Assembly: GCA_000806015.1 (NCBI GenBank)
Contig: JWKY01000001.1
Location: forward strand, 43,569-107,568
Length of the DNA: 64,000 nucleotides
Direction: 5' to 3'
DNA from: an archaeon GW2011_AR19
GTDB taxonomy: Archaea > Nanobdellota > Nanobdellia > Pacearchaeales > GW2011-AR1
Below are positions 31,571 to 63,064 of this stretch, in pieces. The notes under the pieces are model-generated. The model was given only the letters and a program-made list of their open reading frames with translations, had not been told where the DNA came from and ran no database searches. Each line of letters starts with the position of its first letter. Positions within the stretch are counted from its first letter, which is position 1. A program made the position numbers and the translations under genes.

Positions 31571-33772
31571 TTAAATACAAGCCCCATTTGAACATCCCTT
31601 TGGACAGGTATACCATTCTGAAACTGTAGTCGCATAGGTCACTCCAGATACAACATTAGAAACACAAGAATATTCTGCTAATGAGCCAGTGACGCTACTG
31701 CAGAAGTCCCAATTATCTGCAGAAATAGGAGTAGATGAACCAATTGGACCATAATAACTATTTCCCTTTACATTATAATTTTTTCCTCCATCAGAATCTG
31801 TGCACCAAGTTCCTTGATTAGTTTGATTAGTTGTTGTGTTATTTCCTGTTTGATTTCCAAGAGTTTGGTTATAAGTATAATTTCCCGGTAAAGTAATATT
31901 TGTCTGATTTAAAGTCAAATTCCCAGTTTGATTTCCTGGAAGAGTAAAATTTGTTATATTCAAAATTACGCCGGTCAAATTAGTTTGATTTTTAGGAGGA
32001 AGAGTATAATTAGTTTGATTTCCAAGAAGTCCGGAAATTTCAATTGGTTTAACCTTGACTACCAAAAAATTCCACCAGGGTTTTTCTGAACTGATAATCT
32101 TACCAGTTTCGCTGTCAATTTGCGCTTCTAATTTTAATTTAATTTTAAACAAACCTATTAATCTGCCGTCTTTATCTTCTTTAGCAATATAAACTGCTCT
32201 TAGATTGTCTCCTTCTCCAACTTCTTTTAATTCAATATTAAATCCTTTGCTTTTTAATTTTTCCAATGCTATTTCAGATGCTTCATCTGGCATAATTTTT
32301 ATTTCCCGTTCATTTCCATTAGATAATTGGGCTTTAAGTTTTATTTCGTCGTCTTCAAATTTTTCTAATATTTTTAGCTCAGATTTAATTTCATTTTCAT
32401 TAATTATAATCTTTCTCTCAAGCGTTGCGCTTCCATCTGCTTTAACTTCAGTTTTAATTTCAATTTTAACTTCTTCCCCATTTTTATTTATAAAAGTCCT
32501 TTTTTCTCTAACTACGCTTGAACCATCTTCATTAATTTCTGCATTAATTTTAATCTTAATTTCATTTCCTTTTTTATCTGTAATTTTTTTAACTTCTTCT
32601 ATGAATTTTATATTCTCTTTAATTTCTTCTTTAATGCTGATTGTTTCTTCAAAAACTCCTAATGAAGAACTGCTCCCACTGCTTCCTCCTCCACCTGATA
32701 CTGTTCCTGCAGAAGCAGTTGTTGTGCTTGTTGTAGAAATAGTTGGAATTGTAGTTGTGGTGGATGAAGTTGTTGCATTTGTTTGATTAGTTGTTGTATT
32801 ATTCCTAGTTTGATTTGTTGTAGTTGAAACGCAAGCCCCATCAGAACATCCATTTGGACAAGTATAAATTTCAGCATCTGGTCCGCAAAAAAGTTCTACT
32901 ACAGCTGTTCCATCGCCATTGCAATAGTCTGAATAAGTGTAAGAACCATAAGTCCTAGCTCCTTTTACATTATAGTTTTTTCCCCCGTCGCTGTCTGTGC
33001 ATGTTGTTTGATTTGTCGTCGTAGTTGAAACACAGGCGCCATTAGAGCATCCATTTGGACAAGAATAATATTCTGAAGATATTCCATTAACAATAGCAAA
33101 GCCGTTAACAATGCAAAAATATTCTGCTACACTTTGACCATTGCAGTAATCTACATGATTTGGAGAATTTGAAGAGATAGTATTTCCTTTTATATAATAA
33201 TCCTTTCCCCCGTCGCTATCAGAACAAGAAATTCCTGTTTGATTAGTTGTATTTGTTGCAGCAGAAACACAAGCCCCATTTGAGCATCCGTTTGGACAAG
33301 TGTAAGTTTCTCCGCTTTGTTGTTTATCAGCAGTGCAGAAATATTCTACTAATGAATTTGAGCTGCTGCACAAATCTGTAACATCTATAGAAGATGTTGG
33401 CGAATTCGCAACAACATTTCCTTTAGTTGAATATGCTTTTCCTCCGTCGCTATCTGCGCAAGTAAAGGTGTTTGAAACACAAGCGCCAGCAACACAAGTT
33501 TCACCTGATGAGCAGGAGATTACAGAACTAAACTCTAAACAAGAATCAGAATCATAATTCCCGCAAGTTTTATAGCCGTCGCCAGAACATTGTTTTGCCC
33601 CGTTAGACGAGCAATCATCAGAACAGGTCAGATTTGTTGTATCATTTTCAGTAGTTTTTCCAGTTAATTTTTTCCAAAAATCTCCAAACCATGTTGCAGA
33701 CACAAATCCTATTGACATAATTAAAGTAATTAATATTAAAGAAATTAAAACAATTACTAAACTCTTTTTCAT
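31571..33772 (-). CDS. secreted modular surface protein: signal peptide, four Cys-rich ~65-aa modules, Thr-rich linker, beta-rich K/E repeats, dense N-glycosylation sequon cassette
   Basis: N-terminal MKKSLVIVLISLILITLIMSIGFVSA is a signal peptide. Four modules follow the pattern C.DSDGGK.Y..KG...C...E(Y/L).C...Y(T/S)CP(N/K)GCS(N/D)GAC. A TTTNQT...SGGGGSSGSSSS linker is present. About 16 N-x-T sequons lie in aa 583-655 (nt 31808..32026). Confidence 0.7.
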   Translation of the reverse strand: MKKSLVIVLISLILITLIMSIGFVSATWFGDFWKKLTGKTTENDTTNLTCSDDCSSNGAKQCSGDGYKTCGNYDSDSCLEFSSVISCSSGETCVAGACVSNTFTCADSDGGKAYSTKGNVVANSPTSSIDVTDLCSSSNSLVEYFCTADKQQSGETYTCPNGCSNGACVSAATNTTNQTGISCSDSDGGKDYYIKGNTISSNSPNHVDYCNGQSVAEYFCIVNGFAIVNGISSEYYSCPNGCSNGACVSTTTTNQTTCTDSDGGKNYNVKGARTYGSYTYSDYCNGDGTAVVELFCGPDAEIYTCPNGCSDGACVSTTTNQTRNNTTTNQTNATTSSTTTTIPTISTTSTTTASAGTVSGGGGSSGSSSSLGVFEETISIKEEIKENIKFIEEVKKITDKKGNEIKIKINAEINEDGSSVVREKRTFINKNGEEVKIEIKTEVKADGSATLERKIIINENEIKSELKILEKFEDDEIKLKAQLSNGNEREIKIMPDEASEIALEKLKSKGFNIELKEVGEGDNLRAVYIAKEDKDGRLIGLFKIKLKLEAQIDSETGKIISSEKPWWNFLVVKVKPIEISGLLGNQTNYTLPPKNQTNLTGVILNITNFTLPGNQTGNLTLNQTNITLPGNYTYNQTLGNQTGNNTTTNQTNQGTWCTDSDGGKNYNVKGNSYYGPIGSSTPISADNWDFCSSVTGSLAEYSCVSNVVSGVTYATTVSEWYTCPKGCSNGACI

Positions 33773-37000: not shown

Positions 37001-38668
37001 ATGGAAATTTTATATAAAGAGCTAACCCCTGATCATTTTAATAAAAAAGAAAATTTTGGACAAAATTTTTTAAATTGGTTTAAAGATTCGTATAATTTAA
37101 CATTTTTAGGAATATTGCTTCTTGCTATTGTGATAAGAATTTATTATTTTATTTTAACTGCCAATCAGCCTTTATGGTGGGATGAAGCAGATTATCTTGC
37201 TTATGCAAAAAATATTGCAAACTTAGGAGGGGACTGGATTGTAACTGCCCAGCATAATTCACTTTATCCATTTATCGTCGCCGGATTATTTTTGCTGGGA
37301 TTGGGAGAACCGGCAGTTAAATTTTTCATTCAGATAATACCTTCTATTTTATCTGTTTGGTTAGTTTATGCAATTTGCAATGAAATATATGATGATAAAA
37401 GGATAGGCCTGATAGCTTCATTTTTAATGACTACTTTATGGGTTGTTTTATTTAATTCAATGAGATTTCATGTAGATATTCCCGGAATGTTTTTTGGTTT
37501 ACTTGCGCTTTATGTTTTTTGGAGAGGTTATGAAAATAAAAAGAAAATTTTTGGAAAAATAAATTCTAATTTGGCAATTCCTCTTGCAGTCTTTTTTGCA
37601 GTTTTAGCATATTCTATAAGAAGAGCTTATTTTCTTTTTGCAGTTTTTATTTTAGTTTATGTTTTATTGACAACTAAAGATTGGAAAAAATTAATTAAAG
37701 ATAAATATAACTGGATTGGAATTGTATTTGGAGTTTTCTTATTTTTCTTAGTTGAAAAATTTATATTTTTTTCAGGAATAACTGAAGTAGGATCAACCTA
37801 TTATCATCCAGAAAATCCCATTAGTCTCGGAGCATTAAAAGTATTTAGCTCATTTTTTTCTTTTGGAAGTTTGTTTAAAAATATTTATTTTTATTTATTT
37901 TTAATTGGAATAATTTTTATTTTTATTAATCTGCTTATTTATTTAGGACACATAAAAAAAGAGAAAAATAAAAAAGTAAGAGGAGATTTATTTGCCGTTA
38001 TCCTCGTTATTTTTACATTAGCTAATTTTATTTTTATTCTTAGGACTTTTGGAGAGGAAAGATGGTATTTGCCGTTGGCTCTTGGAGCGTTTATTGCAGT
38101 TTCTCAAGGAATTTTATTAATTGGAGATTCTATTAAAAAATATAGTAAAATCATTGGGATAATTTTTATAATTTTGTTAATTGCACTTGGAGGATATTAT
38201 CAGGTCAAAAACGCGGAGGGAATCATAAAAAATAAAATTCCAAGTTTTGAAGGAATCAAAGAGGCAGGTTTATTTTTGAAACAAATCTCTAATCCCGACG
38301 ATATTATTGTTAGCGTTCCAATCCCACAACCAATATATTATTCAGGAAGAAAAGTTATGAACCCTGCAGGCATTTTGAATAAAACAAGCAATCAGGATGT
38401 TAGTTTTGAAGAATTTTTATTAAAGTTGAGTGAAAATACTAAAATAAAATATATTATTGTTACATTTTCAGAACCGGGTCATCCAAATTGGATGCAGCAG
38501 CAATCATCAAATTTTTGGAGCATTCCGTTTATGGATACTGCTATAGATTTTACAAACAATAAACAAGACATAAAACAAGAAAAGACTTATGGAAATATAA
38601 CTTTTAAATTAATTGCATTAAAACAAGATGCTTTTGTTTACGAGATTATAAGAAAGCAAGATTTTTAA
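37001..38668 (+). CDS. GT-C fold membrane glycosyltransferase (ArnT/PMT, GT39/GT83-like)
   Basis: More than 10 TM helices. The first-loop acidic motif LWWDEADYLAYAKNI is typical of the ArnT/PMT_2 family. There is a C-terminal soluble domain. Confidence 0.55.
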   Translation: MEILYKELTPDHFNKKENFGQNFLNWFKDSYNLTFLGILLLAIVIRIYYFILTANQPLWWDEADYLAYAKNIANLGGDWIVTAQHNSLYPFIVAGLFLLGLGEPAVKFFIQIIPSILSVWLVYAICNEIYDDKRIGLIASFLMTTLWVVLFNSMRFHVDIPGMFFGLLALYVFWRGYENKKKIFGKINSNLAIPLAVFFAVLAYSIRRAYFLFAVFILVYVLLTTKDWKKLIKDKYNWIGIVFGVFLFFLVEKFIFFSGITEVGSTYYHPENPISLGALKVFSSFFSFGSLFKNIYFYLFLIGIIFIFINLLIYLGHIKKEKNKKVRGDLFAVILVIFTLANFIFILRTFGEERWYLPLALGAFIAVSQGILLIGDSIKKYSKIIGIIFIILLIALGGYYQVKNAEGIIKNKIPSFEGIKEAGLFLKQISNPDDIIVSVPIPQPIYYSGRKVMNPAGILNKTSNQDVSFEEFLLKLSENTKIKYIIVTFSEPGHPNWMQQQSSNFWSIPFMDTAIDFTNNKQDIKQEKTYGNITFKLIALKQDAFVYEIIRKQDF

Positions 38669-38721
38669 TAAATTCTATCTTAAAAATAATAAAAAAGTTT
38701 ATTCTAGAGAAATATTAAAAA

Positions 38722-39966
38722 TTATATAATTTCCAATTTTGGAATTGGAACAATTAATCTTGCCCCCCATTCTTTTGTATATTCTAATCTTTTTTTTATA
38801 GAATCTTTAAAATTCCAGGGCAAAATCAATATATTGTCTGGTTTTGTCTCTCTTAATTTCTCTTCTCCAACAACAGGAATATGGCTTTCTGGAAGATATT
38901 TTCCCTGTTTAAACGGGGTTAAATCTGCGACATAACTTATAAGGTCTTTTCTTATACCGCAATAATTTAATAGAGTATTTCCTTTTGCAGCCGCCCCATA
39001 ACCGACAACTGTTTTTCCGTTTTCTTTTTGTTCAATAAGAAATTTTAACAAATCATATTTAACTTTATCAACTCGCGGCGTGAATCCATTATAATAATCA
39101 AGGTTCATCATTCCAGAATCAATTTCTTTTTTTTCAAGTAAATTTACTCTCTCTGAAATTCCATGAGTATTATCATTTTCATGCTTAGCGTAAATTCTAA
39201 GCGAACCTCCATGAGTTGGAATTTCTTCAACATCAAATAATTTTAATTTGTGAGAGTTAAATATTTTTTTGACCACGCTAAATGAAAAGTAAGAATAATG
39301 CTCCTGATAAATTGTATCAAACTGATTTTGTTCTACAATATTTTTTAAATGAGGAAATTCCATAGTTAAAACTCCTTTATTTCCTAAGATTTTTTCTAAC
39401 CCTTTAACAAAATCATTTACATTTGGAACATGAGCAAGGACATTATTTCCAATTAACAAATCAGCCTTAGTTCCTAATTTGACAAGCTCTTCTGCAAGTG
39501 TAATTCCAAAAAATTTCTCAATTGTTGGGATTCCATTTTTAATTGCGATTTTTGCAGTGCTTGACGAAGGTTCTATACCTAAAACAGGAATTTCTTTTTC
39601 TTTAAAATATTGCAATAAATAACCATCATTTGAAGCAATTTCAATAACTTGTGATTTATTATTTAAGTTTAAATGAGGAATTATAAAATCTGCGTATTTT
39701 TTGCAATGTTCTAACCAGGGTTGTGAAACAGAAGAAAAATAAACATAATCGTCCCCAAAAATTTCATTATGCGCTCTGTGTTCGTCTACTTGCACAAGAA
39801 AACATTTATCGCATACAAAAACTCTTAGAGGATACGCAATTTCTGGTTCATTTAATTGTTCTTCTGTTCTAAATGAATTTGTTGGAGGGGCGTTTCCCAA
39901 TTCTATAAAAATATTATCAAGAGGGCTATTGCAAAATCTGCACCCCATTTTATTCCCTTGCACCAT
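38722..39966 (-). CDS. sugar C-methyltransferase (TylC3/NovU-like: Zn-binding domain + SAM MTase + C-MT C-terminal domain)
   Basis: MGCRFCNSPLDNIFIELGNAPPTNSF...VFVCDKCFLVQVDEHRAHNEIFGDDYVYFSSVS (Methyltransf_13 pattern). SAM motif VIEIASNDGYLLQYF. Confidence 0.7.
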   Translation of the reverse strand: MVQGNKMGCRFCNSPLDNIFIELGNAPPTNSFRTEEQLNEPEIAYPLRVFVCDKCFLVQVDEHRAHNEIFGDDYVYFSSVSQPWLEHCKKYADFIIPHLNLNNKSQVIEIASNDGYLLQYFKEKEIPVLGIEPSSSTAKIAIKNGIPTIEKFFGITLAEELVKLGTKADLLIGNNVLAHVPNVNDFVKGLEKILGNKGVLTMEFPHLKNIVEQNQFDTIYQEHYSYFSFSVVKKIFNSHKLKLFDVEEIPTHGGSLRIYAKHENDNTHGISERVNLLEKKEIDSGMMNLDYYNGFTPRVDKVKYDLLKFLIEQKENGKTVVGYGAAAKGNTLLNYCGIRKDLISYVADLTPFKQGKYLPESHIPVVGEEKLRETKPDNILILPWNFKDSIKKRLEYTKEWGARLIVPIPKLEII

Positions 39967-40063
39967 TTTTTATTTTAAACAATATTCTTTCTGATAAAAA
40001 TTAGTTTTTAAGCATTATCGTGATTTATCTAAATCTTTAAAAAGATATCAATAAAGTAATTTT

Positions 40064-40603
40064 ATGGAAATACAATCTACAGAGTTTAAAGGATTATTTT
40101 TAATAGCGCCAAATGTATATTCAGATAGCAGGGGTTATTTTTTTGAAAAATATAATAAAAAAATATTCGCAGAAAAGAGCATTACTCAAGATTTTTTGCA
40201 GGAAAGTGAATCTTTTTCTTATAAAAATACCCTTAGAGGATTGCATTTTCAAAAAAAACCTTTTGAACAAGGAAAACTTGTTTCTGTTGTTCAGGGAAGC
40301 ATAAAAGATGTTGTTGTGGATATAAGAAAAGATTCTCAGAATTATGGAAAATGGAAAGCATTTCTTCTTGATTCTAAAGAAAAAAAATCTCTTTTTGTTC
40401 CAGAAGGATTTGCCCACGGATTTCTTGCTTTAGAGGATTCAATAGTGTCTTATAGAATAACTGCACTTTATAATAAAGAATCAGAGTCGGGCATAATTTG
40501 GAATGATTCATTTCTGAATATAAATTGGGGGATATCTAATCCTATTTTATCTGAGAAAGATAAAAAACTCCCAATTTTCAATGACCTATCAAATCTAATT
40601 TAA
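40064..40603 (+). CDS. rmlC: dTDP-4-dehydrorhamnose 3,5-epimerase family (RmlC)
   Basis: DSRGYFFE...LRGLHFQKKPFEQGKLVSVVQGSIKDVVVDIRKDSQNYGKW...FVPEGFAHGF...GIIWND is a full RmlC signature. Confidence 0.85.
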   Translation: MEIQSTEFKGLFLIAPNVYSDSRGYFFEKYNKKIFAEKSITQDFLQESESFSYKNTLRGLHFQKKPFEQGKLVSVVQGSIKDVVVDIRKDSQNYGKWKAFLLDSKEKKSLFVPEGFAHGFLALEDSIVSYRITALYNKESESGIIWNDSFLNINWGISNPILSEKDKKLPIFNDLSNLI

Positions 40604-40607
40604 TAAC

Positions 40608-41423
40608 TCAAACTAAATTTTTCTTATAATCTATTAGACATGCTCTTACCGCATTGTGGATGTCAGGCATTATAATTCCCTCTTTAGATAATTTTGAAGT
40701 ATCAAGAATTCCATCTGCCTTTTTATTTAATAATAATTTGTCCAATTCTTTATTAGAGATAATTTCAAATTTATGTGTCGGGTCTACAATTTCTTTATAC
40801 ATTTCCATTATTTCAACAAGTGAAATCAAACCCGGATTTGTTGCATTATATATTCCAATTTTTCTTTTTTCAATTAAACTTTCAAGCGCATTAAGTATAT
40901 CCGGCACAACTGTAATAGAATTTTTAACATCAGCGATTTGATTATATCCCTTTAGTTTATCTATTAAATTTTTTTCATGGGATCGGCAATCTAAAGGCAT
41001 ATTTATTCTTAATTGCAAACATGGAAATTCTTTTAGTATTTTTTCAGAAATTATTTTTGTTCTTGCATGAGTTTGCAAATAAAAGTTAGGTTCGTCCTCT
41101 TCATTAAATTCTTTATTCTTTCCTGTATAAATTCCTCCAGTCCCAAAATGCACAAAATAAATTCCTTTTTGTGAGCATGTAATCCCAAGATTTGCGGCAG
41201 CAACTACATTTGACATAAATGTTTCTTCCTTATGGGTTTCACACCAGTCAATATTTGGTTTTCCGGTTTTTCCAACCGCGTTAATAACAATGTCTGGTTT
41301 TGTTTGTTCAAGTGTTTGCTCAAGAGCATATCTATCAAGAACATCTATCTCCGATAAATAATAATTAAATTTATCAGCTATTCTTTTGCCTATAAATCCT
41401 GCTCCAAATACTAAACCTTTCAT
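40608..41423 (-). CDS. rmlD: dTDP-4-dehydrorhamnose reductase-like (RmlD family)
   Basis: MKGLVFGAGFIGKRI...KPDIVINAVGKTGKPNIDWCETHKEETFMSNVVAAANL...YFVHFGTGGIYTG follows the RmlD pattern (PD.VINAAA.T.VD..E......N..G...L). Confidence 0.7.
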   Translation of the reverse strand: MKGLVFGAGFIGKRIADKFNYYLSEIDVLDRYALEQTLEQTKPDIVINAVGKTGKPNIDWCETHKEETFMSNVVAAANLGITCSQKGIYFVHFGTGGIYTGKNKEFNEEDEPNFYLQTHARTKIISEKILKEFPCLQLRINMPLDCRSHEKNLIDKLKGYNQIADVKNSITVVPDILNALESLIEKRKIGIYNATNPGLISLVEIMEMYKEIVDPTHKFEIISNKELDKLLLNKKADGILDTSKLSKEGIIMPDIHNAVRACLIDYKKNLV

Positions 41424-41537
41424 GGATTTTGTCAGTTTTTCTTGTTTAAGAATTTAACTATTTTATAATTTTAAAATGACATATGTCCTTGATTATAATT
41501 TCATTAAAAAATAATCTAATCCAAACAATTTTTGTAT

Positions 41538-42557
41538 TTAATCTTTCTTATTTAATATTCTAACTGCCAAAAATGAATATATATAATTTAGAGTTATCGC
41601 AAATGTTAAAATCGGATGAACAAGCCAGGAAAATTCTTTTTGTTTAATAGCCATTTTTATTCCATCAAAAAGTCTTGGAAAAATTATAAGATTATAAAAA
41701 ACATTTTTAACAAATTTAAGATTCTGTTTGAAATTATTTTTTTCTAAACTTATCCAATAAAAGTTTCTATGCTGAATATTCTCTCTTAAATAATACCTAA
41801 CATAAAATCCTCTTTTTTTAACAAATTCAAAAAATTCTGAAGAAGTTTTATGAAATACCTTCAAATCCAATGGGATAGCAACATTATATTTGTGTTTGTT
41901 TAATGCCATTCTATAAAAATTATCTATATCTTGTGTATATCCTTTGTTGTCAAAAAAGTCTTTTTTCCTTATTAAAAATCCATTATCTCCCCCATAACAA
42001 AAATCATTTTTACTTATTGTATAAATAAAATATTTTTCTTTTTTATTAAATTCAAATTTTTTTGGATGAAGTATGACTTCTGATTTTAGGGAATAGGGTA
42101 TAGCAAAAGGATCTTCAATCCCTGTTGCTCCGAGATATCTGTCTATGGTAGAGCCCCCTTCAGGAATAAGTGTAAGTGACTGAACACAAGAAAGGGTTTT
42201 ATTCTTCATAAGAATTTCAGCCATTGATTTTAACCAAAACTTCTGGATAAGAAGATTATCTTGGTCAATCATTAAAATAAATTCTCCAGTTGCTTTTTTA
42301 GAAGCGATATCTGCTCCTCCACCGCGTCCAACTTTATATTTTTTAGGATTATCTATTAATTTTATTATTTTAGGGTATTTTTTTTGATAATTTTTAATAA
42401 TGCTTAAAGTTTTATCTGTGCTTCCTCCATCGGCAACTATCATCTCAAGTTTGTCCTTGGGATAAGTTTGCTCGAAAAATAGTTTTAAACAATCTTCAAT
42501 AGTTTTCTCGCCGTTATATGTCACTAAAACTACGCTTATTTTAGGATATTTTTCCAT
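41538..42557 (-). CDS. family 2 glycosyltransferase
   Basis: ISVVLVTYNGEKTIEDCLKLFFEQTYPKDKLEMIVADGGSTDKT. Confidence 0.8.
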   Translation of the reverse strand: MEKYPKISVVLVTYNGEKTIEDCLKLFFEQTYPKDKLEMIVADGGSTDKTLSIIKNYQKKYPKIIKLIDNPKKYKVGRGGGADIASKKATGEFILMIDQDNLLIQKFWLKSMAEILMKNKTLSCVQSLTLIPEGGSTIDRYLGATGIEDPFAIPYSLKSEVILHPKKFEFNKKEKYFIYTISKNDFCYGGDNGFLIRKKDFFDNKGYTQDIDNFYRMALNKHKYNVAIPLDLKVFHKTSSEFFEFVKKRGFYVRYYLRENIQHRNFYWISLEKNNFKQNLKFVKNVFYNLIIFPRLFDGIKMAIKQKEFSWLVHPILTFAITLNYIYSFLAVRILNKKD

Positions 42558-42558
42558 T

Positions 42559-43491
42559 TTATTTTTCTGCTTCTACTTCTAATATAGAACCCCCTTTCAT
42601 ATAAGTAACTAAAAGACTTATTGGCGTAAACAATATTTTAGATAAACTAGAAAAGATTAAATTATGTTTTTTTCTTTTATCTTTTTGTTTGTCAACAAGA
42701 TAAAACTTAATAGAGCCGTCTAACATATAAGGAATGTCATAAGTTCTTATTTTGTTTATTTTAAATCCATATTTTTCCAATCTAATTTTTATATTTTTAG
42801 GATTATAAGTATAAAGATGTCTGGGAACATCATATCCATACCAATTTTTTCCAAATATTTTATTCCAAAGTCCATCCCCATTTGGAACAACAATAATTAG
42901 TTTTCCTCCATTTTTTAAGAGAGAATAACTTTTTTTTAAAACTGCATCTTGATTGGGAATATGTTCTAAAACTTCTTTCATAATAATATAATCAAAGCTT
43001 TCTGTAGGAAAATTTGATTTAAGGATATTTTTTCTTTCTATTCCTAAGTTTTTTTCTCTTTGTGTAAGATTTAGTCCATATGGTTCTAATCCTGCAGTTC
43101 TTAAACCATATTTTTTATAAAATTCAAGTTGCATTCCGTCTCCACATCCAATCTCAAGAAGTTTTTTGCCAGGGTCTATTCTGTAGTGATATAATAAAGA
43201 ACTAAAAGGCCAGAATAAAATATTAAATAACAGATTCTTATTAGAATAATACTCTGCTGAGATTTTGTGATATAAGATTGAGAGTTTAGATTTTTTATGG
43301 TAAGAGTAATACTCTGAGGGAGGATAATATTTTGCTATTTGTTTTTCGTTCAATAACGGCTCAATAAATTTAAATTCGCAATTAGAACATTTATTTAATG
43401 AAAATTCTCCCGATACAAAATAATCTTTATCATACATAGAAGAATACAAAATGTTAGCTTTTCCTTCACATAAGGGACATCTTTTTTCCAT
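42559..43491 (-). CDS. SAM-dependent methyltransferase with N-terminal Cys4 zinc-ribbon
   Basis: CPLCEGK...CSNCEF zinc ribbon. Motif I LLEIGCGDGMQL. IIMKEVLEHIPNQD. Confidence 0.75.
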   Translation of the reverse strand: MEKRCPLCEGKANILYSSMYDKDYFVSGEFSLNKCSNCEFKFIEPLLNEKQIAKYYPPSEYYSYHKKSKLSILYHKISAEYYSNKNLLFNILFWPFSSLLYHYRIDPGKKLLEIGCGDGMQLEFYKKYGLRTAGLEPYGLNLTQREKNLGIERKNILKSNFPTESFDYIIMKEVLEHIPNQDAVLKKSYSLLKNGGKLIIVVPNGDGLWNKIFGKNWYGYDVPRHLYTYNPKNIKIRLEKYGFKINKIRTYDIPYMLDGSIKFYLVDKQKDKRKKHNLIFSSLSKILFTPISLLVTYMKGGSILEVEAEK

Positions 43492-44417
43492 TATCTCGTT
43501 AGCCTCATTTTCCAGCCTTCTTTGGTTGAAATATTTCTTTTAAATTTACTTTTAATTGAGCCTATTAAAAATGCTAAATTTAATAATGAAAATCCAAGAA
43601 ATTCTTTTAAACTCATATTGGGTATTTTTCTTATAATATAAAAAAAGAATTTCGGCGATAAAATTTTTACTGGTCTTTTTATAGCCTTTAATTGGTTTCT
43701 GGCTAATGCTGTTCTTTCTTTTATTTTTATTAATTCCTTAAATTTATAAGTTTCACCTGCAGTAATCATTCTTGGCAACTTTTGGTTTGTTGTTGCAACA
43801 ATTTCTAAACCAGAATTTACTATGTCATAAAATCTCTCAAAATCATCTCCCAATGTTTGGTTTTGTTTGTATAGCTTTTTTCTAAAGATATTCACAATTA
43901 GCGGTGAAAAATTTTTATCTGCAATTGTCCATAAATCATTTATTTTTTTTCCATGTTCTTTTATATAATCAATCCAAATTTGATTTTGTATCATTACCCC
44001 TATTTCAAGAATTCCTGCTTCTTTTCTTGCAGGATATTGCACTGAGAACGAATCCGCAATGCACCCCACTTTAGGATTATTGAAAATATCTAATAATTGT
44101 TTTAATGAATCCTTATCTTTAACTCTAAATATCCAATCTGCATCATTAATAATCATAATTTCACCTTTTGCTTTTTTTATTATTTTGTTTATAACTGCCG
44201 GCTTGCCTTCTCTTATATTCAGATTATAATGTCTTATTTTTTTAGATTTTTTTTCAAAAGATTTTACTATCTCTTCAGTCTTGTCTGTACAGCCGTCTAA
44301 CCCTATAATTACTTCATAATTTTTATATGGCAGAGAAATAAGATTTTTCAAATTTTTGGATATTATTTTTTCTTCATTATGGACTGCCATTAAAAATGAA
44401 ACCTTTATTTCTTTCAT
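43491..44417 (-). CDS. family 2 glycosyltransferase
   Basis: VSFLMAVHNEEKIISKNLKNLISLPYKNYEVIIGLDGCTDKT. Confidence 0.7.
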   Translation of the reverse strand: MKEIKVSFLMAVHNEEKIISKNLKNLISLPYKNYEVIIGLDGCTDKTEEIVKSFEKKSKKIRHYNLNIREGKPAVINKIIKKAKGEIMIINDADWIFRVKDKDSLKQLLDIFNNPKVGCIADSFSVQYPARKEAGILEIGVMIQNQIWIDYIKEHGKKINDLWTIADKNFSPLIVNIFRKKLYKQNQTLGDDFERFYDIVNSGLEIVATTNQKLPRMITAGETYKFKELIKIKERTALARNQLKAIKRPVKILSPKFFFYIIRKIPNMSLKEFLGFSLLNLAFLIGSIKSKFKRNISTKEGWKMRLTR

Positions 44418-45211
44418 CTATTCAATCTCCTTCTTGTTCTAAGTGAGGCATTTACACTCCAATCATAAAACTTTATTAAACTTTTGAAAGGAGAACTTAA
44501 AATTCTTAATCTCACTATAGCTAATAACATTACTGGTCCCGATTTAGCAAAATTTACTTTAGAATATTCTTTGTCACTCCAAGAAGTAGAGATTTCTTTA
44601 ATTTTAAATCCAAGTCTTTTCATATTATAAAGAACCTCTACATCAAAAGCGAGTTGCGAAAAAGTTAATTTTGGAATTGTTTTTTCCAAGGTTTTTCGTT
44701 TAAAAAGTTTGGCTCCGCATTGAGTATCTTTAAATTGCAATCCTAAGATAATCCTTATCATAAAATTAAAAATTCTTGAAGCAAAAATTCTTTCAAAAGT
44801 GGGTTTTGGAGCAATGATTGAGTCTTTAACATATCTGCTTGCAATTATCCCGTCGTAATTATTAATTTTTTTAACCAGCTCATAAAAAGTTTCAGGCGAA
44901 GTAGCCATATCAGCGTCCTTAAATCCAATTAAATTGCTATTTCCTTTTAGCGCTTCTTTAAAACCCTCAATAACTGCATAACCTTTAGCTCCTCTTTTTA
45001 AATTTAAATATTTTAATTCTTTGTTTTTTTTAGCGAGCTCTTTTACAATTTCAAGAGTCTTATCAGTTGAACCATTTACAACTGCAATTATTTCAAAATC
45101 TAAAATTTTATTTTTTTTAATGGCTTTAAAAAATTTTAAATTTGAATCAAGAGTTTCTTTAATTCGTTTCTCTTCATTATAAGCGGGGATAATTATGCTG
45201 ATTTTTTCCAT
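44414..45211 (-). CDS. dolichyl-phosphate hexose synthase-like GT2 (DPM1/AglD/AglJ-like)
   Basis: ISIIIPAYNEEKRIKETL...IIAVVNGSTDKT...FKDADMATSP...DTQCGAKLFKRK...FDVEVL matches the Dpm1 pattern. 265 aa. Confidence 0.7.
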   Translation of the reverse strand: MEKISIIIPAYNEEKRIKETLDSNLKFFKAIKKNKILDFEIIAVVNGSTDKTLEIVKELAKKNKELKYLNLKRGAKGYAVIEGFKEALKGNSNLIGFKDADMATSPETFYELVKKINNYDGIIASRYVKDSIIAPKPTFERIFASRIFNFMIRIILGLQFKDTQCGAKLFKRKTLEKTIPKLTFSQLAFDVEVLYNMKRLGFKIKEISTSWSDKEYSKVNFAKSGPVMLLAIVRLRILSSPFKSLIKFYDWSVNASLRTRRRLNR

Positions 45212-46440
45212 TTTCTAACAAAAATAAAAGCCCCTATAAAGGTTATTATAGTAGAGAACATAAATGCAAGAGTAAATTGTTTAATGTCTGCATTAAATAA
45301 AAATAGCAAAATTATCTCTATAACTAAAAAGAGGATAATTAATAATAAATGGGGTAAATTAAATTCGTCTGTTGAGATTCTATATAATATAAGAATATTT
45401 AGAAAAGCTATCAAGCTAAACGCGATTCCAAGATATGGCAATAATTCTGCTATTTCTAAATACTGGCTGCCAAATAATAATTTTATTGTCAGTTCTGGAA
45501 GAATAATAAAAAGAGCGACAGCAGCGGCGCATAATATAAAAACATACAGCGAGGCTTTTTTAATGATTCCGCTTGTTTTGGCTTTTGCATAATGTCTTTC
45601 AGCGCTTATAGGAAACATCGCATTTCCAATAGACATTGTAGAAAATAAAATCATTTTTCCTATTGTTGAAAGCACTGCATACTGGCCTGCAATTTCACTT
45701 GAAAAAAACACCCTTGCTAAAATTACATCAATGCTGTAAATAAAAACAAAAACTAAAATTGAACCAAAAATCAAGCTATTTTCTTTAGTTAAAATTTTTG
45801 TCCCATCATTATCTCTTTTAGCGTTTATTATTTCCTTTATATACGGCAAAGCAAGAATAAAACCAAAAACCATTCCTAAAATAAAACCTAAAATAGCTCC
45901 ATAAACTTTAAATCCAAAAATTACAAGAATTATTGCAACTACAATTTTTATAAAAAAAACTAAAAGAGTGTTCCAGCCAAGAGCTGAGAATTTTTTCATT
46001 CCCTGCAAAGAGCCCGCAGCAAGAGGGTAAACAAATGAGGCAATTATTAAAGTTCCTGTTAAAACTAAAAGCCAAAAAGAAATATTAAGGGGTTTTATAA
46101 TAAAAAAAGACAAGATTACAAAAAGAATAAAAACAATAAGCGAGAAAATAAATAATTTTTTTAAAAAACTAAAAAACAAGCCACCCATTTTATTGTATTC
46201 TTTTGTTGCATTGAATATTGCAATTTTTTTTGATACAGCAGTTTGTATCGCTAATGTCGGAATTGTAAAAATATATGTAAAACTTATTAAAACAGCAAGA
46301 ATTCCATAGTCTGAAGGCCCAAGCATTCTCGCCATAATAATTTGATAAAGATAATTAATTAGATTTCCAATATTAATTAAAACAAAAAGAATTAAACTTC
46401 CTCTAAAAAGTTCATTTTTCTTAATTTTTTCAAAAATCAT
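45193..46440 (-). CDS. Wzx/AglR-type oligosaccharide flippase (polysaccharide biosynthesis protein family)
   Basis: 415 aa with about 12 TM helices. Its position is between the OST and the lipid-linked GT genes. Confidence 0.65.
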   Translation of the reverse strand: MIFEKIKKNELFRGSLILFVLINIGNLINYLYQIIMARMLGPSDYGILAVLISFTYIFTIPTLAIQTAVSKKIAIFNATKEYNKMGGLFFSFLKKLFIFSLIVFILFVILSFFIIKPLNISFWLLVLTGTLIIASFVYPLAAGSLQGMKKFSALGWNTLLVFFIKIVVAIILVIFGFKVYGAILGFILGMVFGFILALPYIKEIINAKRDNDGTKILTKENSLIFGSILVFVFIYSIDVILARVFFSSEIAGQYAVLSTIGKMILFSTMSIGNAMFPISAERHYAKAKTSGIIKKASLYVFILCAAAVALFIILPELTIKLLFGSQYLEIAELLPYLGIAFSLIAFLNILILYRISTDEFNLPHLLLIILFLVIEIILLFLFNADIKQFTLAFMFSTIITFIGAFIFVRKWKKSA

Positions 46441-46441
46441 T

Positions 46442-49195
46442 TTACAATTCCCAACTTAAATATTTTGAAGAATCTCTGTCAAGGTATTCTTGTTTTTTTT
46501 CCTCGTTTCCAGTATATTTAATTTCCCAGATTTTTATAGGCCCCTGAATTCCCTGATAATAAACAAATTCATTTAAATTTACACCTTGTTTTTTTAGCTC
46601 GCTGACTATTAAATTATCTTCTGAATGAACTAATTTAAAGTTTAAGAATTTGTTAAAAGGATCATTTAATAAATATTTTTGGGCAAAATATCCCCTCATA
46701 ACCCGAGGAGAAATATAAATCATGCTTCCAAAATCATCCATCTTGACCTGTCCGTTAACAACCTCTATTTTTTGAATTATCTTTATAGTCCCTTCTAATC
46801 CGCTTCCAAAATCAACAAATTTATTATTATATTCTAAATATCTTAAAGGAAGATTATATTGCTGGCCATTATAAACAAAAACTCCTGTTGGCTGAATAAA
46901 ACTCAGGCTTTCATTATTTTGAGAACTCTGGAGGATTACCCCCCCGATTCCTGCTGCTCCAGACGGCAGGAAAATTTCTGAATTATTTAAATTGTAAATT
47001 ATATCTTCATCTAATCCAACTCCCCCGCTATAAACTCTCATCATTCCAGAACTTGTTTCTCTGCTTTGGCTTTTGTCGAAATGAATTGTTGGAATAAAAG
47101 ATAATCGATCATAATTCTCGCTGCTGCCAATGCTTGAAAACGCCCCGTATTTTCCAATATCTGAAGAATCTATTAATAAATAATTTGCATCATGGCTATA
47201 TAAAAATTCTAAAGCATCTTTTTGATTATCGCCAGTCAAGACTAATCTTCCAGTTAAGTAATTCCACCAGACAACCATGTTTCCACCGTCTGTAACTGTC
47301 GCTCTCTCTCCTATTGATTGAAGCCAGTAACCATAATCCCACCAGTGCGCAAAAACACTATTTTGAGGGGTTTCATCTCTGACCCATTTCATTGCTTTTT
47401 GCCATTGTTGATTATAAGCAGATGGAACAGCATTATATGCCTGGGATTTAATTTCTTTATAATATGAAATAAATATAAATATTGTCAAGACAATTAAAAT
47501 TATTGCAATAATTCCTAAAAATAATCTTTTTTCTTCTTTTGAATTTTTAAATGAGAAAATTGACTGGTCAATTAAATATCCAACGAATATTGGAACAATT
47601 GGTCCGAGAATCATAACTAATCTTACAGCACTTCTGGCGCTGAATAATGCAAGAACTAATAAAGACAACAAAAGCAGAGAGCTATATTCTATTTTTTCAA
47701 AACCTTTGTGTTTTTCTTTTTGATATTTAACATAATAATAAATAAAAAATCCGACTAAAAGAGCAATTGATAAAAGAAAAAAAGTTTTGCTTATGAAATT
47801 TTCTCCATTAAACATGCTTGAGGGAGAATATCTTGAAAACATTAATCCAGATAAAAATAAAACAAATAAACCAGTTAGTATCCATGAATCTTTTTTCTTA
47901 ATTTCATTTAACATTTTTTTAAAGAAAACTATTGAGCCAATAAAAAATAACCAGAACATTATTGGAATCGCTTTAATGAATGGTCCGAAACTTCCAACCC
48001 ATTCAGTAAAATAAGGCTGTTTATTTTCTGCAACTGTCTGATTCCATCTTCCTGTTACAGGTTTAAAAAGAGTATTGTTAATCTGTTTTATTTTGTCGGA
48101 TAGCATTGAAGGATTTATAATAAGAGCGATTATTAAAAGCGCTAAAACCAGAACCAAAATTGAAATTATATTTTTTGGAAGATTTATTTTCTTTAAAAAT
48201 TTATTTTCAGAAATTTTTGTATTCCATAGTAGAAGGTGCAAAAATAATAGCATTAGTAAAATAAATGTGGCACTGTTTATCAAGGAAGATGAAATAAAAC
48301 TAACATGGCCTTTTCCAGGAAGAAGAGATAAAAACAATCTTGCAGAAATCCACCATGAAGAATAAACAATTATTTCTTTCTTTTTAAATTTGTTTAAAAT
48401 AAATGCAGTAAAACTCGCGGCAAAAGTTGCCCAATATAAATAAGCAGATAATCCAGATACTAATGCCATACCTGCAGTCGCAGCTCCTGCTAAAATTCCG
48501 TAAATTAAAGCATGTTTTATTTTTTCAGATTTCCAGGCTTTTAAAAATAAAAATAACGCAAGAAATAAAAAGAAAAACATTGCAGATTCTTTTTCTGGAA
48601 TGCCTGCAACTGTCCTTGATAATAAAATTGGAATTACAATCATTAAAAATGTAGAAATTAAAGAAATTATGTTTGCGCGAATTTTGCTTAATTTAGACTC
48701 TCTTGCAAAAAGTTCTCTTACAAATAAGAAAAAAACGATTATTGTCAGCGCAAAAATGATTACAGGAAATAGCGCTGCTCCAAATTCAACATTCGCCTGC
48801 GGATAAAAAATCTTTGAGAGTTTGTAAGCCAAGGCAACCATATACGGGAGCAAAACTGTTTCTTCTGATGTTTTAAATCCAAGAGGAACATTTCTCATTG
48901 TGTCTATCTCTGGAATTGACCCTTCATTTACAATTAATTTTGCCATTCTTGTAAATAGCCAGGGATCTAAATCAGGTCCGAGCGTCCAAGTATTTGTTGC
49001 AACATCCCAAAGTCCGGGATTTCCGCCATGATCTGACATAGGCAAACTTCTAATATATATTCCAAGAATTAAAGCAATTATTAAGAGACCAATCACCCAA
49101 ACTTCCGGCTTTTTAAGAAAATTTATTATTTTGTCTTTTCTTATTTTAATTAATTCATCTTCGCTATTTGATTTATTTTCGGCTAAACTTTCCAT
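46442..49195 (-). CDS. aglB: oligosaccharyltransferase AglB (STT3 family)
   Basis: 917 aa with about 13 N-terminal TM helices plus a C-terminal soluble domain. The hallmark WWDYGYW motif is at aa 618-624 (nt 47324..47344). An acidic first-loop motif is present (GPDLDPW). Confidence 0.9.
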   Translation of the reverse strand: MESLAENKSNSEDELIKIRKDKIINFLKKPEVWVIGLLIIALILGIYIRSLPMSDHGGNPGLWDVATNTWTLGPDLDPWLFTRMAKLIVNEGSIPEIDTMRNVPLGFKTSEETVLLPYMVALAYKLSKIFYPQANVEFGAALFPVIIFALTIIVFFLFVRELFARESKLSKIRANIISLISTFLMIVIPILLSRTVAGIPEKESAMFFFLFLALFLFLKAWKSEKIKHALIYGILAGAATAGMALVSGLSAYLYWATFAASFTAFILNKFKKKEIIVYSSWWISARLFLSLLPGKGHVSFISSSLINSATFILLMLLFLHLLLWNTKISENKFLKKINLPKNIISILVLVLALLIIALIINPSMLSDKIKQINNTLFKPVTGRWNQTVAENKQPYFTEWVGSFGPFIKAIPIMFWLFFIGSIVFFKKMLNEIKKKDSWILTGLFVLFLSGLMFSRYSPSSMFNGENFISKTFFLLSIALLVGFFIYYYVKYQKEKHKGFEKIEYSSLLLLSLLVLALFSARSAVRLVMILGPIVPIFVGYLIDQSIFSFKNSKEEKRLFLGIIAIILIVLTIFIFISYYKEIKSQAYNAVPSAYNQQWQKAMKWVRDETPQNSVFAHWWDYGYWLQSIGERATVTDGGNMVVWWNYLTGRLVLTGDNQKDALEFLYSHDANYLLIDSSDIGKYGAFSSIGSSENYDRLSFIPTIHFDKSQSRETSSGMMRVYSGGVGLDEDIIYNLNNSEIFLPSGAAGIGGVILQSSQNNESLSFIQPTGVFVYNGQQYNLPLRYLEYNNKFVDFGSGLEGTIKIIQKIEVVNGQVKMDDFGSMIYISPRVMRGYFAQKYLLNDPFNKFLNFKLVHSEDNLIVSELKKQGVNLNEFVYYQGIQGPIKIWEIKYTGNEEKKQEYLDRDSSKYLSWEL

Positions 49196-49230
49196 TTTTA
49201 GATTAGAATAATTTTATATTTAAAGCTTTG

Positions 49231-50220
49231 TTATACCATGAAAATCCAAAATCCGAGCAAGATAATCATTATCTGAAATCCATTAATTAAATAGACGACA
49301 TCTGTTTCATAAACTTTTTTTGACGGCTTTATTTTTTTCAAAAGTTTTATTGCTAAATGTTCCAATCCATATATTTTCTCATAAGGCATCTCCAAACTTC
49401 TATCTTTATTTAGCTTTGCAAAACTTTCTTTTCTAAGCCATCCTCTTAATTTTAAAATTGTTTCAAGGATATATGGAATAAAAAAGAATAATGCGATTTT
49501 TTCAATGTTTCCGAGGATGGCAATTACTGCAATCAGCGCTCCAACAGGATAAGTTAAAGTATCTCCGGGAAATATTTTTGCAGGATATTTGTTAAATATG
49601 TAAAAAGCGATTAAAGCCGCAACCATACATAATGCAATTATGCTTAACCAGGAATTTCCAGTTAAAAAAGTTACAATAGACAGTGCAGATAAAATTAAAA
49701 TTCCCTGACTTGCTTCTAATCCGTTGTATCCAGCTAAAAAATTAAAAGTTGTTGATGCTCCTACAATTCCTATTGGAATTAAAAATAATGGATATACTAA
49801 TCCAAAATCTATTCCAAATAGAATGGATTCTCCGGCATTTATTACCATCAGAGGGATAGCAGCAAAAAGCATCATCACAATCCTCATTGATTTGCTTAAG
49901 CCCTTTTTCCAGCCCAATAAATCATCTATTGAACCAAGCATAGTGGCAATAAATAAAGTTGTTAAAATTGCAAATATAGAAGATAAAAATTCACTTCTTT
50001 TAAAATAAAAAGTATTTATTGCAATATATAATAATACACCGATTGAAAATCCAAACATGACGCTGACTCCACCGCCTTCTGCAATCTTTTTTTTATCTTG
50101 TTTATGCATATCTTTTCCAACTAAATTCTCTTGATTGGCTTTTCTTATCCAAAAGGGAATTATAAAAAGAGCGCAGAAAAAACTAATTAATATTGTTGCT
50201 AATAATAATATTTCCACCAT
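49231..50220 (-). CDS. aglH: dolichyl-phosphate HexNAc-1-phosphate transferase (GPT/Alg7/AglH, MraY-WecA superfamily)
   Basis: DMHKQDKKKIAEGGG (D..K....P..GG). NFLAGYNGLEA matches the eukaryotic/archaeal GPT NAINILAGINGLE. IDDLLG and PGDTLTY motifs. 10 TM helices. Confidence 0.8.
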   Translation of the reverse strand: MVEILLLATILISFFCALFIIPFWIRKANQENLVGKDMHKQDKKKIAEGGGVSVMFGFSIGVLLYIAINTFYFKRSEFLSSIFAILTTLFIATMLGSIDDLLGWKKGLSKSMRIVMMLFAAIPLMVINAGESILFGIDFGLVYPLFLIPIGIVGASTTFNFLAGYNGLEASQGILILSALSIVTFLTGNSWLSIIALCMVAALIAFYIFNKYPAKIFPGDTLTYPVGALIAVIAILGNIEKIALFFFIPYILETILKLRGWLRKESFAKLNKDRSLEMPYEKIYGLEHLAIKLLKKIKPSKKVYETDVVYLINGFQIMIILLGFWIFMV

Positions 50221-50578
50221 TTTTATTATATGCTGAGAGAATTTTTAAAGGTATTTATGTACAATGCCTGCTCACTCTGTTCGCAGAATTTATTTGCTAC
50301 GAAATAGATTTCATCATATTTCTTCGCTAAAAGAAAAGGCTTATCGCGGTAATACTTTTGAAAGGCTGGATTAATCCTTAAATAAATTAATGAATAAAAG
50401 CTGTTTGGAGTAATATCCTAAATAAATCCTCGCGACTTTGGAGTGAGCAATTTAGCATCTAAGAAAAATATAATTTTTAGTCCGAAAATTACCCAATCAT
50501 CAATATTTTTATTATATATTCATTATTAAATGATAACAAAATCGAAAGATTTATATAGCTCATTTCTTTTTAGTTATT

Positions 50579-51933: not shown

Positions 51934-51938
51934 TTTTT

Positions 51939-52361: not shown

Positions 52362-52441
52362 TATATTTATTAATGCTTATTAAGTATAAAAAACTTTCTT
52401 AAATCAGGTAGAAATTTAAATAAAGAATACTTAACCAATTT

Positions 52442-54120: not shown

Positions 54121-54170
54121 GCTTTATTAAAAAAAAGAGAATATTTAAAGTTTCGTGGGATGTAAATAAT

Positions 54171-54959: not shown

Positions 54960-54993
54960 AAAAGTTTAAATACTTCGTAAGATTAGACTTACC

Positions 54994-55501: not shown

Positions 55502-55510
55502 ATTTTTTTA

Positions 55511-55690: not shown

Positions 55691-55836
55691 TAAACAGCTC
55701 TTTGATTATTAATAATTTCAATTGATTAATCCAGCTTCTAAAAATGTTGATAGTGATAATTTCTTTTTAGCGAAGAAATCTGCGCTTGCGCGATTTCGGA
55801 GCAAATAAATTTATTTTTCCTAAGGAAAAATGCAAA

Positions 55837-58387: not shown

Positions 58388-58439
58388 TAGATATTCAATA
58401 AAAATTAGCTTTTAAATTTAGTTATTTTTAGATTTTGTC

Positions 58440-59908: not shown

Positions 59909-59909
59909 A

Positions 59910-63063: not shown

Positions 63064-63064
63064 T

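Follow-up and report, generated by a model that had tools for sequence, protein, structure and literature searches.

A probable AglB-dependent N-glycosylation locus with a lineage-conserved core and an exchangeable glycan cassette in the Pacearchaeota archaeon GW2011_AR19

We analysed a 64,000-nucleotide stretch of contig JWKY01000001.1 (the window) from the DPANN archaeon GW2011_AR19 (AR19; Pacearchaeota, groundwater), which carries a run of glycan genes around aglB, the gene for an oligosaccharyltransferase (OST). These genes probably (with a probability of roughly 0.7) form an AglB-dependent protein N-glycosylation locus, built from a core conserved in the lineage and an exchangeable glycan-specificity cassette. 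AglB and the sugar-1-phosphate transferase GPT, usually with the flippase Wzx and the glycosyltransferase GT2a, are the conserved core, and the stretch from the GT2b gene to a 3-C-methyltransferase gene is a swapped cassette. An earlier note on this DNA had described eight genes as one N-glycosylation operon; this set is the conserved core plus half of the exchangeable cassette.

Results

Layout of the locus

The eight minus-strand open reading frames (ORFs) of the earlier note exactly matched a mechanical ORF list and the JGI gene calls on the source contig, and the genes of the locus were already annotated in databases. AglB is 100% identical to 'dolichyl-diphosphooligosaccharide-protein glycosyltransferase [archaeon GW2011_AR19]' and is also found on JGI contig Ga0209211_10000394. 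Its relatives carry the labels Pacearchaeota, Nanoarchaeota or Woesearchaeota (DPANN archaea). No paper naming GW2011_AR19 was found in the literature searched. The G+C content across the window is 27-33%. The features are listed below (window coordinates; TM, transmembrane segments; HexNAc, N-acetylhexosamine; SAM, S-adenosylmethionine; NDP, nucleoside diphosphate).

49231..50220, minus: GPT gene, Alg7/AglH/DPAGT1-type polyprenyl-phosphate HexNAc-1-P transferase, 329 aa, about 8-10 TM
46442..49195, minus: AglB gene, STT3-family OST, 917 aa, about 11-13 TM and a C-terminal external domain
45193..46440, minus: Wzx gene, Wzx/MOP-type flippase candidate (AglR-like role), 415 aa, about 10-12 TM
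44414..45211, minus: GT2a gene, polyprenyl-phosphate sugar synthase-like GT2 (DPM1/GtrB/ArnC/AglJ class), end of the conserved core
43491..44417, minus: GT2b gene, GT2 glycosyltransferase, 308 aa, PF00535 75 bits
42559..43491, minus: MT gene, class I SAM methyltransferase, N-terminal Cys4, C-terminal TM helix
41538..42557, minus: GT2c gene, GT2 glycosyltransferase, 339 aa, PF00535 81 bits, end of the tight block
40608..41423, minus: reductase gene ('rmlD'), NRS/ER (UGER)-type NDP-4-keto-6-deoxyhexose reductase homologue, 271 aa
40064..40603, plus: RmlC gene, dTDP-4-dehydrorhamnose 3,5-epimerase, convergent with the reductase gene
38722..39966, minus: 3-C-methyltransferase gene, NDP-hexose 3-C-methyltransferase of TcaB9/KijD1/MtmC type
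37001..38668, plus: PMT_2 gene, GT-C membrane glycosyltransferase, about 9 TM, conserved distal anchor of the locus
38669..44413, both strands: exchangeable cassette with GT2b, MT, GT2c, reductase, RmlC and 3-C-methyltransferase, between GT2a and PMT_2
31571..33772, minus: Cys-rich repeat protein ORF, secreted or anchored, 26 N-X-S/T sequons, candidate acceptor glycoprotein

The tight spacing reported for these genes was borne out at most junctions: AglB and Wzx are 1 nt apart, Wzx and GT2a overlap by 19 nt, GT2a and GT2b by 4 nt, and GT2b and MT by 1 nt, and the gap between MT and GT2c is again 1 nt. It did not extend to GPT and AglB, which are separated by 35 nt (49196-49230). The gap of about 110 nt noted before 'rmlD' measured 114 nt from GT2c. 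The RmlC gene had been described as divergent from 'rmlD'. In fact the two are convergent, tail to tail, with stop codons 4 nt apart, and the divergent partner of the RmlC gene is the next gene, encoding the 3-C-methyltransferase.

A conserved core and a swapped cassette

A scan with one genome per GTDB species yielded 80 AglB loci, numbered here with the prefix L. The usual order in the relatives is IF2B(-) SpoIIM(+) AglB(+) GPT(+) [Wzx GT2a] ... variable ... PMT_2(-) GT9(-), and dozens of related genomes share this core order, so the arrangement is not random. In 58 of 70 loci, the gene directly downstream of AglB is GPT (median gap, 1 nt), and GPT is the most constant partner of AglB (41 of the 43 loci with 8 kb of downstream sequence). 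Wzx directly follows GPT in 26/54 loci and is itself followed by GT2a in 20 of these 26, while a convergent PMT_2 gene is found downstream of AglB in 22/43. Homologues of GT2b, MT and GT2c occur in 4/43, 13/43 and 12/43 loci, respectively, and those of the reductase, RmlC and 3-C-methyltransferase in 0/43.

The locus had been called unusually complete and ordered. This description does not fit a core that is standard for its lineage and stands at the end of an island of about 50 kb, and aglB clusters are textbook knowledge in Haloferax and Halobacterium (PMC4335974, PMC8993221).

The boundaries of the cassette are sharp at the DNA level. Blastn homology through AglB-Wzx-GT2a ends at 44463 with L002 (84% identity) and at 44417 with L082 (73%), and it returns inside PMT_2 at 38648 and 38646, respectively, where the identity is 77% to L002 and 72% to L082. 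Between these points, L002 carries GT2, GT2, an FkbM methyltransferase and a methyltransferase, and L082 carries a methyltransferase, a nucleotidyltransferase (NTP transferase), a short-chain dehydrogenase/reductase (SDR) and two GT2s. Among the 19 loci with both anchors, the AglB-to-PMT_2 interval spans 1.1-8.9 kb and 1-9 ORFs, and 28 of the 41 gene clusters in these intervals occur in one locus each. With thresholds of 35% identity and 70% coverage, five AR19 cassette genes are singletons and the sixth, GT2b, recurs in 4/19 loci. The G+C content of the cassette is slightly lower (27% vs 30%).

GPT lies upstream of AglB only in the AR19 clade (AglB at least 70% identical: the AR19 window, L082 and L083). 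In this clade the gene has shifted from the downstream to the upstream side of AglB (window 49231-53266; L082 8978-12763; L083 5056-12766). In the AR19 window, four genes are also inserted between SpoIIM and GPT, two of them PHP_C-like, one for an EamA half-transporter and one for a 170-aa TM protein.

AglB is an oligosaccharyltransferase with intact catalytic motifs

AglB scored 26.8 bits against Pfam STT3 (gathering cut-off, 24.5) and 22.1 against PF21436 (cut-off 23). With 104 bits against a cut-off of 450 for TIGR04154, it falls outside that archaeosortase-A-associated subfamily. A hydropathy scan found 11 TM segments and, from about residue 590 to 917, a soluble domain; this C-terminal domain matches Pyrococcus furiosus AglB-L (3e-11).

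We aligned AglB with 31 homologues that are 54-86% identical to it, and all catalytic motifs were invariant. In a homologue profile alignment, the first acidic motif in external loop 1, D75-L-D77-P-W, aligns with yeast E45-F-D47-P-W, and the second, G198-I-P-E201-K-E203-S in external loop 2 (EL2), an ExE variant, aligns with yeast/human VAGSYDNE (yeast D166, E168). The TIxE-type motif T387-V-A-E390-N-x-Q-P in external loop 5 was assigned by motif and invariance, as the PDB profile alignment did not reach this loop; its low predicted confidence (pLDDT) is expected of a flexible loop. W618-W-D-Y-G622 and D679-I-G-K682 (D679xxK682, the DK/MI motif) align with the WWDYG and 'DWAKFNAI' of P. furiosus AglB-L.

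The AlphaFold (AF2) model of AglB had a pLDDT of 79 and a pTM of 0.76. In a Foldseek search of the PDB with this model, the top 17 matches were all OST catalytic subunits, among them STT3A/B, yeast Stt3, Archaeoglobus fulgidus AglB and PglB (E 4e-12 to 6e-9, target TM-scores 0.50-0.65). The STT3 assignment thus withstood the check for a pseudo-OST, which was ruled out by the invariant motifs and the fold match. Judged by its sequence and its modelled fold, AglB is a bona fide STT3-family OST with intact catalytic residues. DPANN AglB has been grouped with that of Euryarchaeota, distinct from the TACK/Asgard/eukaryote type (PMC8993221).

GPT resembles the Alg7/AglH-type initiating transferases

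The call of an initiating HexNAc-1-P transferase was supported as Alg7/AglH/DPAGT1-like by PF00953 (104 bits, gathering cut-off 27), by a higher score against human DPAGT1 (59 bits) than against MraY (29 bits), and by conserved motifs; the NCBIfam models for MraY and WecA scored GPT far under their cut-offs. D37xxK40, D99D100, N160..G164.N166GLE169..QG173 and F217PGD220 are conserved in at least 95% of 65 orthologues, the central motif reading N160-FLAG-Y-N166GLE-AS-QG173. In Sulfolobus acidocaldarius AglH, the motifs are DxxK, DDxx(N/D), NxxNxxxGxxGLxxG and F/VxGD, and D100 is essential (PMC5222938). GPT departs from them in two places: the first N of NxxN is Thr157, which is not conserved in the clade, and the residue following DDxx is Gly. 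The 'PCPRHR' sugar-recognition loop of DPAGT1 is not conserved in the GPT alignment, so that any assignment of a particular HexNAc is tentative. From family and motifs, we infer the activity of GPT, its sugar and its carrier.

Flippase, glycosyltransferases and methyltransferase

The flippase call for Wzx was confirmed by Pfam, with PF01943 and PF13440 both above cut-off, and the TM scan gave about 10 segments. GT2a (PF00535, 99 bits) had been compared to DPM1, and this agrees with its best PDB matches, the P. furiosus dolichyl-phosphate (Dol-P)-Man synthase 5MLZ (5e-12), GtrB (5EKP) and ArnC. Its best NCBIfam matches, PgfS (68/500), ArnC, AglJ (34/325) and PpgS, were all under cut-off, the equivalog scores far below. 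The DxD motif D99-A-D101 is conserved, and no TM segment was found in GT2a at the threshold used in the scan. GT2b and GT2c are generic GT2 enzymes, so that the calls of three GT2s stood. MT (PF13489, 82 bits) carries the proposed Zn-ribbon-like CxxC...CxxC at its N terminus (C5xxC8...C35xxC38) and a C-terminal TM helix (278-296); its PDB matches were to generic methyltransferases only.

Sugar-building genes of the cassette and the PMT_2 gene

The identification of 'rmlD' had to be revised. Its product scored 69 bits against the RmlD equivalog TIGR01214 (cut-off 224) and at most 37 bits against bacterial and archaeal RmlD structures. Full-length matches were to Arabidopsis thaliana NRS/ER (4QQR, 155 bits, 2.7e-44) and Mimivirus L780 (7JID, 103 bits, 2.2e-28), and NCBI already labels the protein '3,5-epimerase/4-reductase'. 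We dismissed a classical RmlD on these grounds; the protein is of the NRS/ER (UDP/dTDP-rhamnose synthase) type.

The SDR motif YxxxK of this reductase reads H119-A-R-T-K123, with the His codon CAT at 41069-41067. The Tyr is present in at least 90% of 26 homologues (numbered with the prefix P), including the 84%-identical P0123, and His is found only in the AR19 protein. The identical protein occurs on 19 contigs, so H119 is probably no one-off assembly error. In L780, Cys108 and Lys175 are catalytic (PMC9614988). The reductase has Gly97 at the position of the epimerase Cys, and five other aligned homologues have Gly or Ser there (P0123, P0130, P0134, P0168 and P0223, three of which are the closest relatives). 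K156, the equivalent of Lys175, is invariant, and the Rossmann GxGxxG is kept.

The rule that loss of the Cys goes with an adjacent RmlC was unsupported in the two homologues checked. P0150 keeps the Cys and lies in a dehydratase-ER-nucleotidyltransferase operon without RmlC, as the rule expects; P0130 has Ser for Cys and, contrary to the rule, no RmlC within 6 kb. In L085 (4997-7535), a Cys-containing NRS/ER-like homologue lies in a three-gene dehydratase-ER-nucleotidyltransferase operon without RmlC. Among DPANN archaea, this is the layout to be expected if rhamnose is made by two enzymes in the eukaryote/giant-virus style.

RmlC itself scored above cut-off (TIGR01221, 212 bits vs 156; PF00908, 213 bits). 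The 3-C-methyltransferase has PF08421 and PF08484 and matches 5T64, 4RV9 and 3NDI over its full length at about 1e-63, and these structures are KijD1, MtmC and TcaB9. A methylated, deoxyhexose-containing glycan, as first suggested, is plausible, with a genuine sugar 3-C-methyltransferase in the same cassette.

The PMT_2 protein (PF13231, 39 bits; PF02366, 27 bits) had about 9 TM segments in the TM scan and no PDB or NCBIfam match. It is a candidate for an AglS-like enzyme that takes a Dol-P-sugar outside the cell.

Proposed pathway and choice of lipid carrier

We propose the following pathway. GPT would add HexNAc-1-phosphate to dolichyl phosphate at the cytoplasmic face, giving dolichyl diphosphate (Dol-PP)-HexNAc. 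GT2b, GT2c and perhaps other glycosyltransferases (GTs) of the island would lengthen the lipid-linked glycan from nucleotide sugars, and the membrane-anchored MT would methylate it; RmlC, the 3-C-methyltransferase and the NRS/ER-like reductase would provide a (C-methyl) 6-deoxyhexose donor. The Wzx-like protein would flip the lipid-linked oligosaccharide, and AglB would move the glycan to Asn of N-X-S/T sequons in surface proteins, such as the product of ORF 31571-33772. GT2a may make a Dol-P-sugar, which the PMT_2 GT-C enzyme would add on the outer face, by analogy with AglD/AglS of Haloferax (PMC4335974).

Several observations weigh against this reading. The organism is uncultured and the locus is known from genes alone. 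About half of the related loci are without Wzx, and L083 has four unrelated small genes, one with a weak S_layer_N match, between GPT and AglB. In the window, we found no nucleotidyltransferase (RmlA) and no 4,6-dehydratase (RmlB) at the equivalog cut-off, and the reductase, having lost the SDR Tyr, may be inactive or altered. All GT2s and MT score far below every equivalog cut-off, and hence any substrates proposed for them are tentative. Pathways of the euryarchaeal type are started by a GT2 on Dol-P, and in Methanococcus voltae AglH is not the initiator (PMC8993221), so GT2a could be the true initiator.

The last point amounts to an alternative in which the locus serves the same N-glycosylation on a Dol-P carrier, with an AglJ/AglK-like GT2a initiating and GPT serving another product or an accessory role. 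We consider this unlikely. GT2a does belong to the polyprenyl-phosphate glycosyltransferase class (5MLZ, GtrB, ArnC and the match to the AglJ model), and the external domain of AglB is nearest to that of euryarchaeal P. furiosus AglB. DPANN AglB is grouped with that of Euryarchaeota, which use Dol-P (PMC8993221; PMC11407970), and the carrier-linked first sugar of M. voltae is made by AglK (PMC8993221). We nevertheless rate initiation by GT2a lower because it is GPT that is the constant, translationally coupled neighbour of AglB. In addition, some loci, such as L020, consist of AglB-GPT-PMT2 without an intervening GT2a, and the conserved PMT_2 enzyme offers GT2a another job, that of a Dol-P-sugar donor synthase.

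Predicted transcripts

The genes had also been described as a single transcription unit, which is at odds with the following features.

50242..50249, minus: TATA-like box TTTAAAAA, starting 29 nt before the GPT ATG; predicted to be the promoter of a transcript with a short leader or none
49217..49224, minus: TATA-like box TTTAAATA within the 35 nt between GPT and AglB, starting 29 nt before the AglB ATG; predicted internal promoter
41506..41511, minus: T6 run 27 nt past the GT2c stop, within the 114-nt gap; possible archaeal oligo-T terminator

Both boxes fit TTTAWAWA, an octamer with one occurrence per ~948 nt of strand. The 100-nt regions upstream of the 58 window ORFs contain it 18 times, in 9 cases starting at -30 to -27. 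The nine ORFs with the octamer at this position (9/58) include GPT and AglB, with the box at -29 (50249-50242 and 49224-49217), and for example also those at 40064, 50579 and 54120. This peak in position indicates TATA boxes and mostly leaderless mRNAs in the organism, and it makes the octamer at -30 to -27 a usable promoter predictor for the contig. The AglB box is also kept at -29 in L082 and L083. Upstream of Wzx, GT2b, MT and GT2c there is no such box. From these signals we predict two transcripts at least, and probably three: GPT, AglB-Wzx-GT2a-GT2b-MT-GT2c, and the reductase gene.

It is doubtful that the eight genes are one polycistronic operon in which the boxes are merely incidental AT-rich sequence. 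The genes are co-directional, five of their junctions overlap or have a gap of at most 1 nt, and A/T-rich octamers are no rarity at a G+C content as low as 27-31%; transcripts from the GPT promoter are likely to cross the 35-nt spacer anyway. Yet the octamer is infrequent and positioned where it is found, the boxes mark GPT and AglB and spare the overlapping internal genes, the AglB box is conserved, and the 114-nt gap with its T6 run precedes the last gene. Runs of six or more T are common inside coding sequence too, so the T6 run past GT2c is weak terminator evidence. Counts in a scan for sigma-70 promoters and intrinsic terminators were under the shuffle means, and such a scan is not applicable to archaea.

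The surrounding island and a candidate acceptor

Positions 1-50220 of the window form a single large glycan island, of which the AglB locus is the end. The island holds four DegT aminotransferases and several SDR dehydratases/epimerases, an HldE-like heptose kinase/adenylyltransferase (5955-7481), a carbamoyltransferase (12239-13948), two B12-radical SAM enzymes (18100-19401 and 19557-20897), an rSAM-SPASM protein (3219-4487), a GT9+GT2 fusion (35069-36955) and a GT4-family enzyme with Agl16 as its best match. In the relatives L002 and L082, the glycan genes stop shortly past the GT9 gene, which implies that the island is greatly expanded in AR19. At 27157-29466 (plus) we observed a 769-aa protein in which an NDP-sugar 4,6-dehydratase/epimerase-type SDR is fused to a zinc-binding sugar C-methyltransferase (PF08421+PF08484); it is the second C-methyltransferase of the island and an unusual combination of domains. 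Scans of the window for tRNAs and Rfam families gave no matches.

An island of this size, with heptose (HldE-like, GT9) and amino-sugar genes, exceeds the needs of one N-glycan. GPT, Wzx, GT2s and deoxysugar genes also follow the logic of a WecA/Wzx O-antigen cluster, and the block is in conserved synteny with the glycan-unrelated SecY, prefoldin and IF2B genes. It is nonetheless very improbable that the GTs, the flippase and the sugar enzymes of the locus together produce a non-protein glycoconjugate (a Wzx-dependent surface polysaccharide, a lipoglycan or an O-linked glycan) beside which AglB is a mere syntenic neighbour, because no Wzy-type polymerase or chain-length regulator was detected in the window and AglB is tightly coupled, to GPT at about 1 nt in most relatives and to Wzx at 1 nt in AR19; the cassette between the AglB core and the GT-C gene is, moreover, exchanged as one unit.

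The sole large unannotated ORF of the window (31571-33772) encodes a 733-aa protein with a single TM segment, secreted or anchored and not polytopic, and it had no Pfam, NCBIfam or PDB match. It consists of 4-5 Cys-rich modules (C.DSDGGK.Y..KG...EY.C...Y.CPNGCSNGAC), a Thr/Ser linker, a Lys/Glu-rich region and NQT-type repeat tracts. Its 26 sequons amount to 3.55 per 100 aa, six times the window mean of 0.58, and shuffles of its composition yielded 14.7+-3.3. Homologues are DPANN surface-type proteins, some with S_layer_C or CARDB domains, and related modules adjoin AglB in L021 and L081. From these sequence traits, it is the best candidate for an acceptor, that is, a surface glycoprotein and AglB substrate.

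Neighbourhood of the AglB locus

The AglB locus lies directly after a ribosomal spc-type operon and genes for SecY, an EMC3/TMCO1 (Oxa1-like) insertase, prefoldin, IF-2B and a membrane protein of the SpoIIM family (conserved synteny block: window 53263-64000; L082 1-8940; L083 1-5913). In 36 of 67 relatives, the gene directly before AglB is SpoIIM, in the same orientation. The translocon/insertase genes and the OST may be functionally linked, or this is simply frozen synteny. A MazE-antitoxin/ParE-like toxin pair lies between IF-2B and prefoldin (window ~54994-55501, corresponding to L001 3695-4202), and L083 has a ParE/MazE pair at the same position as in the AR19 window.

Comparison with known systems

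In the literature searched, there was no description of the N-glycosylation pathway of any DPANN archaeon. The cell surfaces of these archaea presumably mediate host attachment, and the locus and its 80 relatives provide a concrete gene set: the AglB-GPT pair, a conserved predicted Dol-P-sugar synthase, a conserved GT-C enzyme and a variable cassette. aglB-anchored, strain-variable clusters are already established in haloarchaea, and this general picture is unchanged. In Pacearchaeota, the fixed pairing of AglB with GPT and the bounded cassette may be less known.

Like AR19, Haloferax volcanii and Halobacterium salinarum have an AglB-anchored cluster with several GT2s, a SAM methyltransferase (theirs is AglP), the Wzx/Rft1-like, flippase-associated AglR, an AglD-type Dol-P-sugar synthase and the GT-C enzyme AglS, which adds the last sugar outside the cell (PMC4335974). 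The content of the haloarchaeal cluster also differs among close relatives (PMC4335974, PMC11407970). In haloarchaea, however, a GT2 (AglJ) starts the glycan on Dol-P and aglB has no Alg7-type GPT beside it, whereas the tightest AglB partner in the AR19 locus is a GPT of the Alg7/AglH type. No component of the AR19 locus reached the equivalog cut-off of any Agl model in NCBIfam.

With AglH-AglB of S. acidocaldarius and Alg7-STT3 of eukaryotes, AR19 shares an Alg7-type transferase (DxxK, DD, N..G..NGLE..G) and an STT3-family OST, a combination that implies a Dol-PP-linked glycan. The genes are scattered in Sulfolobus (aglH saci0093, aglB saci1274) and adjacent in AR19, and agl genes cluster with aglB in Euryarchaeota, not in Crenarchaeota (PMC8993221). 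No Agl24/Alg13-14 homologue was seen in the AR19 operon, and EL2 of its AglB has ExE, not DxD/DxE.

The pgl locus of Campylobacter jejuni is compact and co-directional, with an initiating phosphoglycosyltransferase, GTs, a flippase, sugar-modifying enzymes and PglB. It uses undecaprenyl-PP, a monotopic PglC-type initiator and the ABC-type flippase PglK. AR19 resembles it in the combined gene set but differs in its polytopic Alg7-type initiator and MOP/Wzx-type flippase candidate. In bacterial Wzx-dependent O-antigen and capsule loci, conserved flanks enclose a hypervariable cassette of GT and deoxysugar genes that is swapped among close relatives. The AR19 locus shares this design and the slightly lower G+C content of the cassette; it differs in that no Wzy or chain-length regulator was found in the window and in that its product is predicted to go to protein Asn via AglB, not to lipid A-core.

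The AR19 reductase resembles the UDP-L-rhamnose synthases NRS/ER of A. thaliana and L780 of Mimivirus over its full length and keeps GxGxxG, K123 and K156. It differs from them in Gly97 for Cys, His119 for Tyr and a separate RmlC next door.

We tentatively suggest that Pacearchaeota run a hybrid system, in which an Alg7-type Dol-PP initiator is translationally coupled to an AglB grouped with Euryarchaeota (a grouping of DPANN AglB taken from PMC8993221), in a locus whose cassette, lying between the AglB-GPT-Wzx-GT2a core and the PMT-like GT-C gene, is swapped among close relatives in the manner of O-antigen loci. If true, each lineage would have a surface N-glycan of its own, which might play a part in host recognition by these episymbionts. 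The gene set of the locus predicts a glycan that is linked to Dol-PP and initiated with HexNAc, and the AglB of this lineage reportedly resembles the euryarchaeal type.

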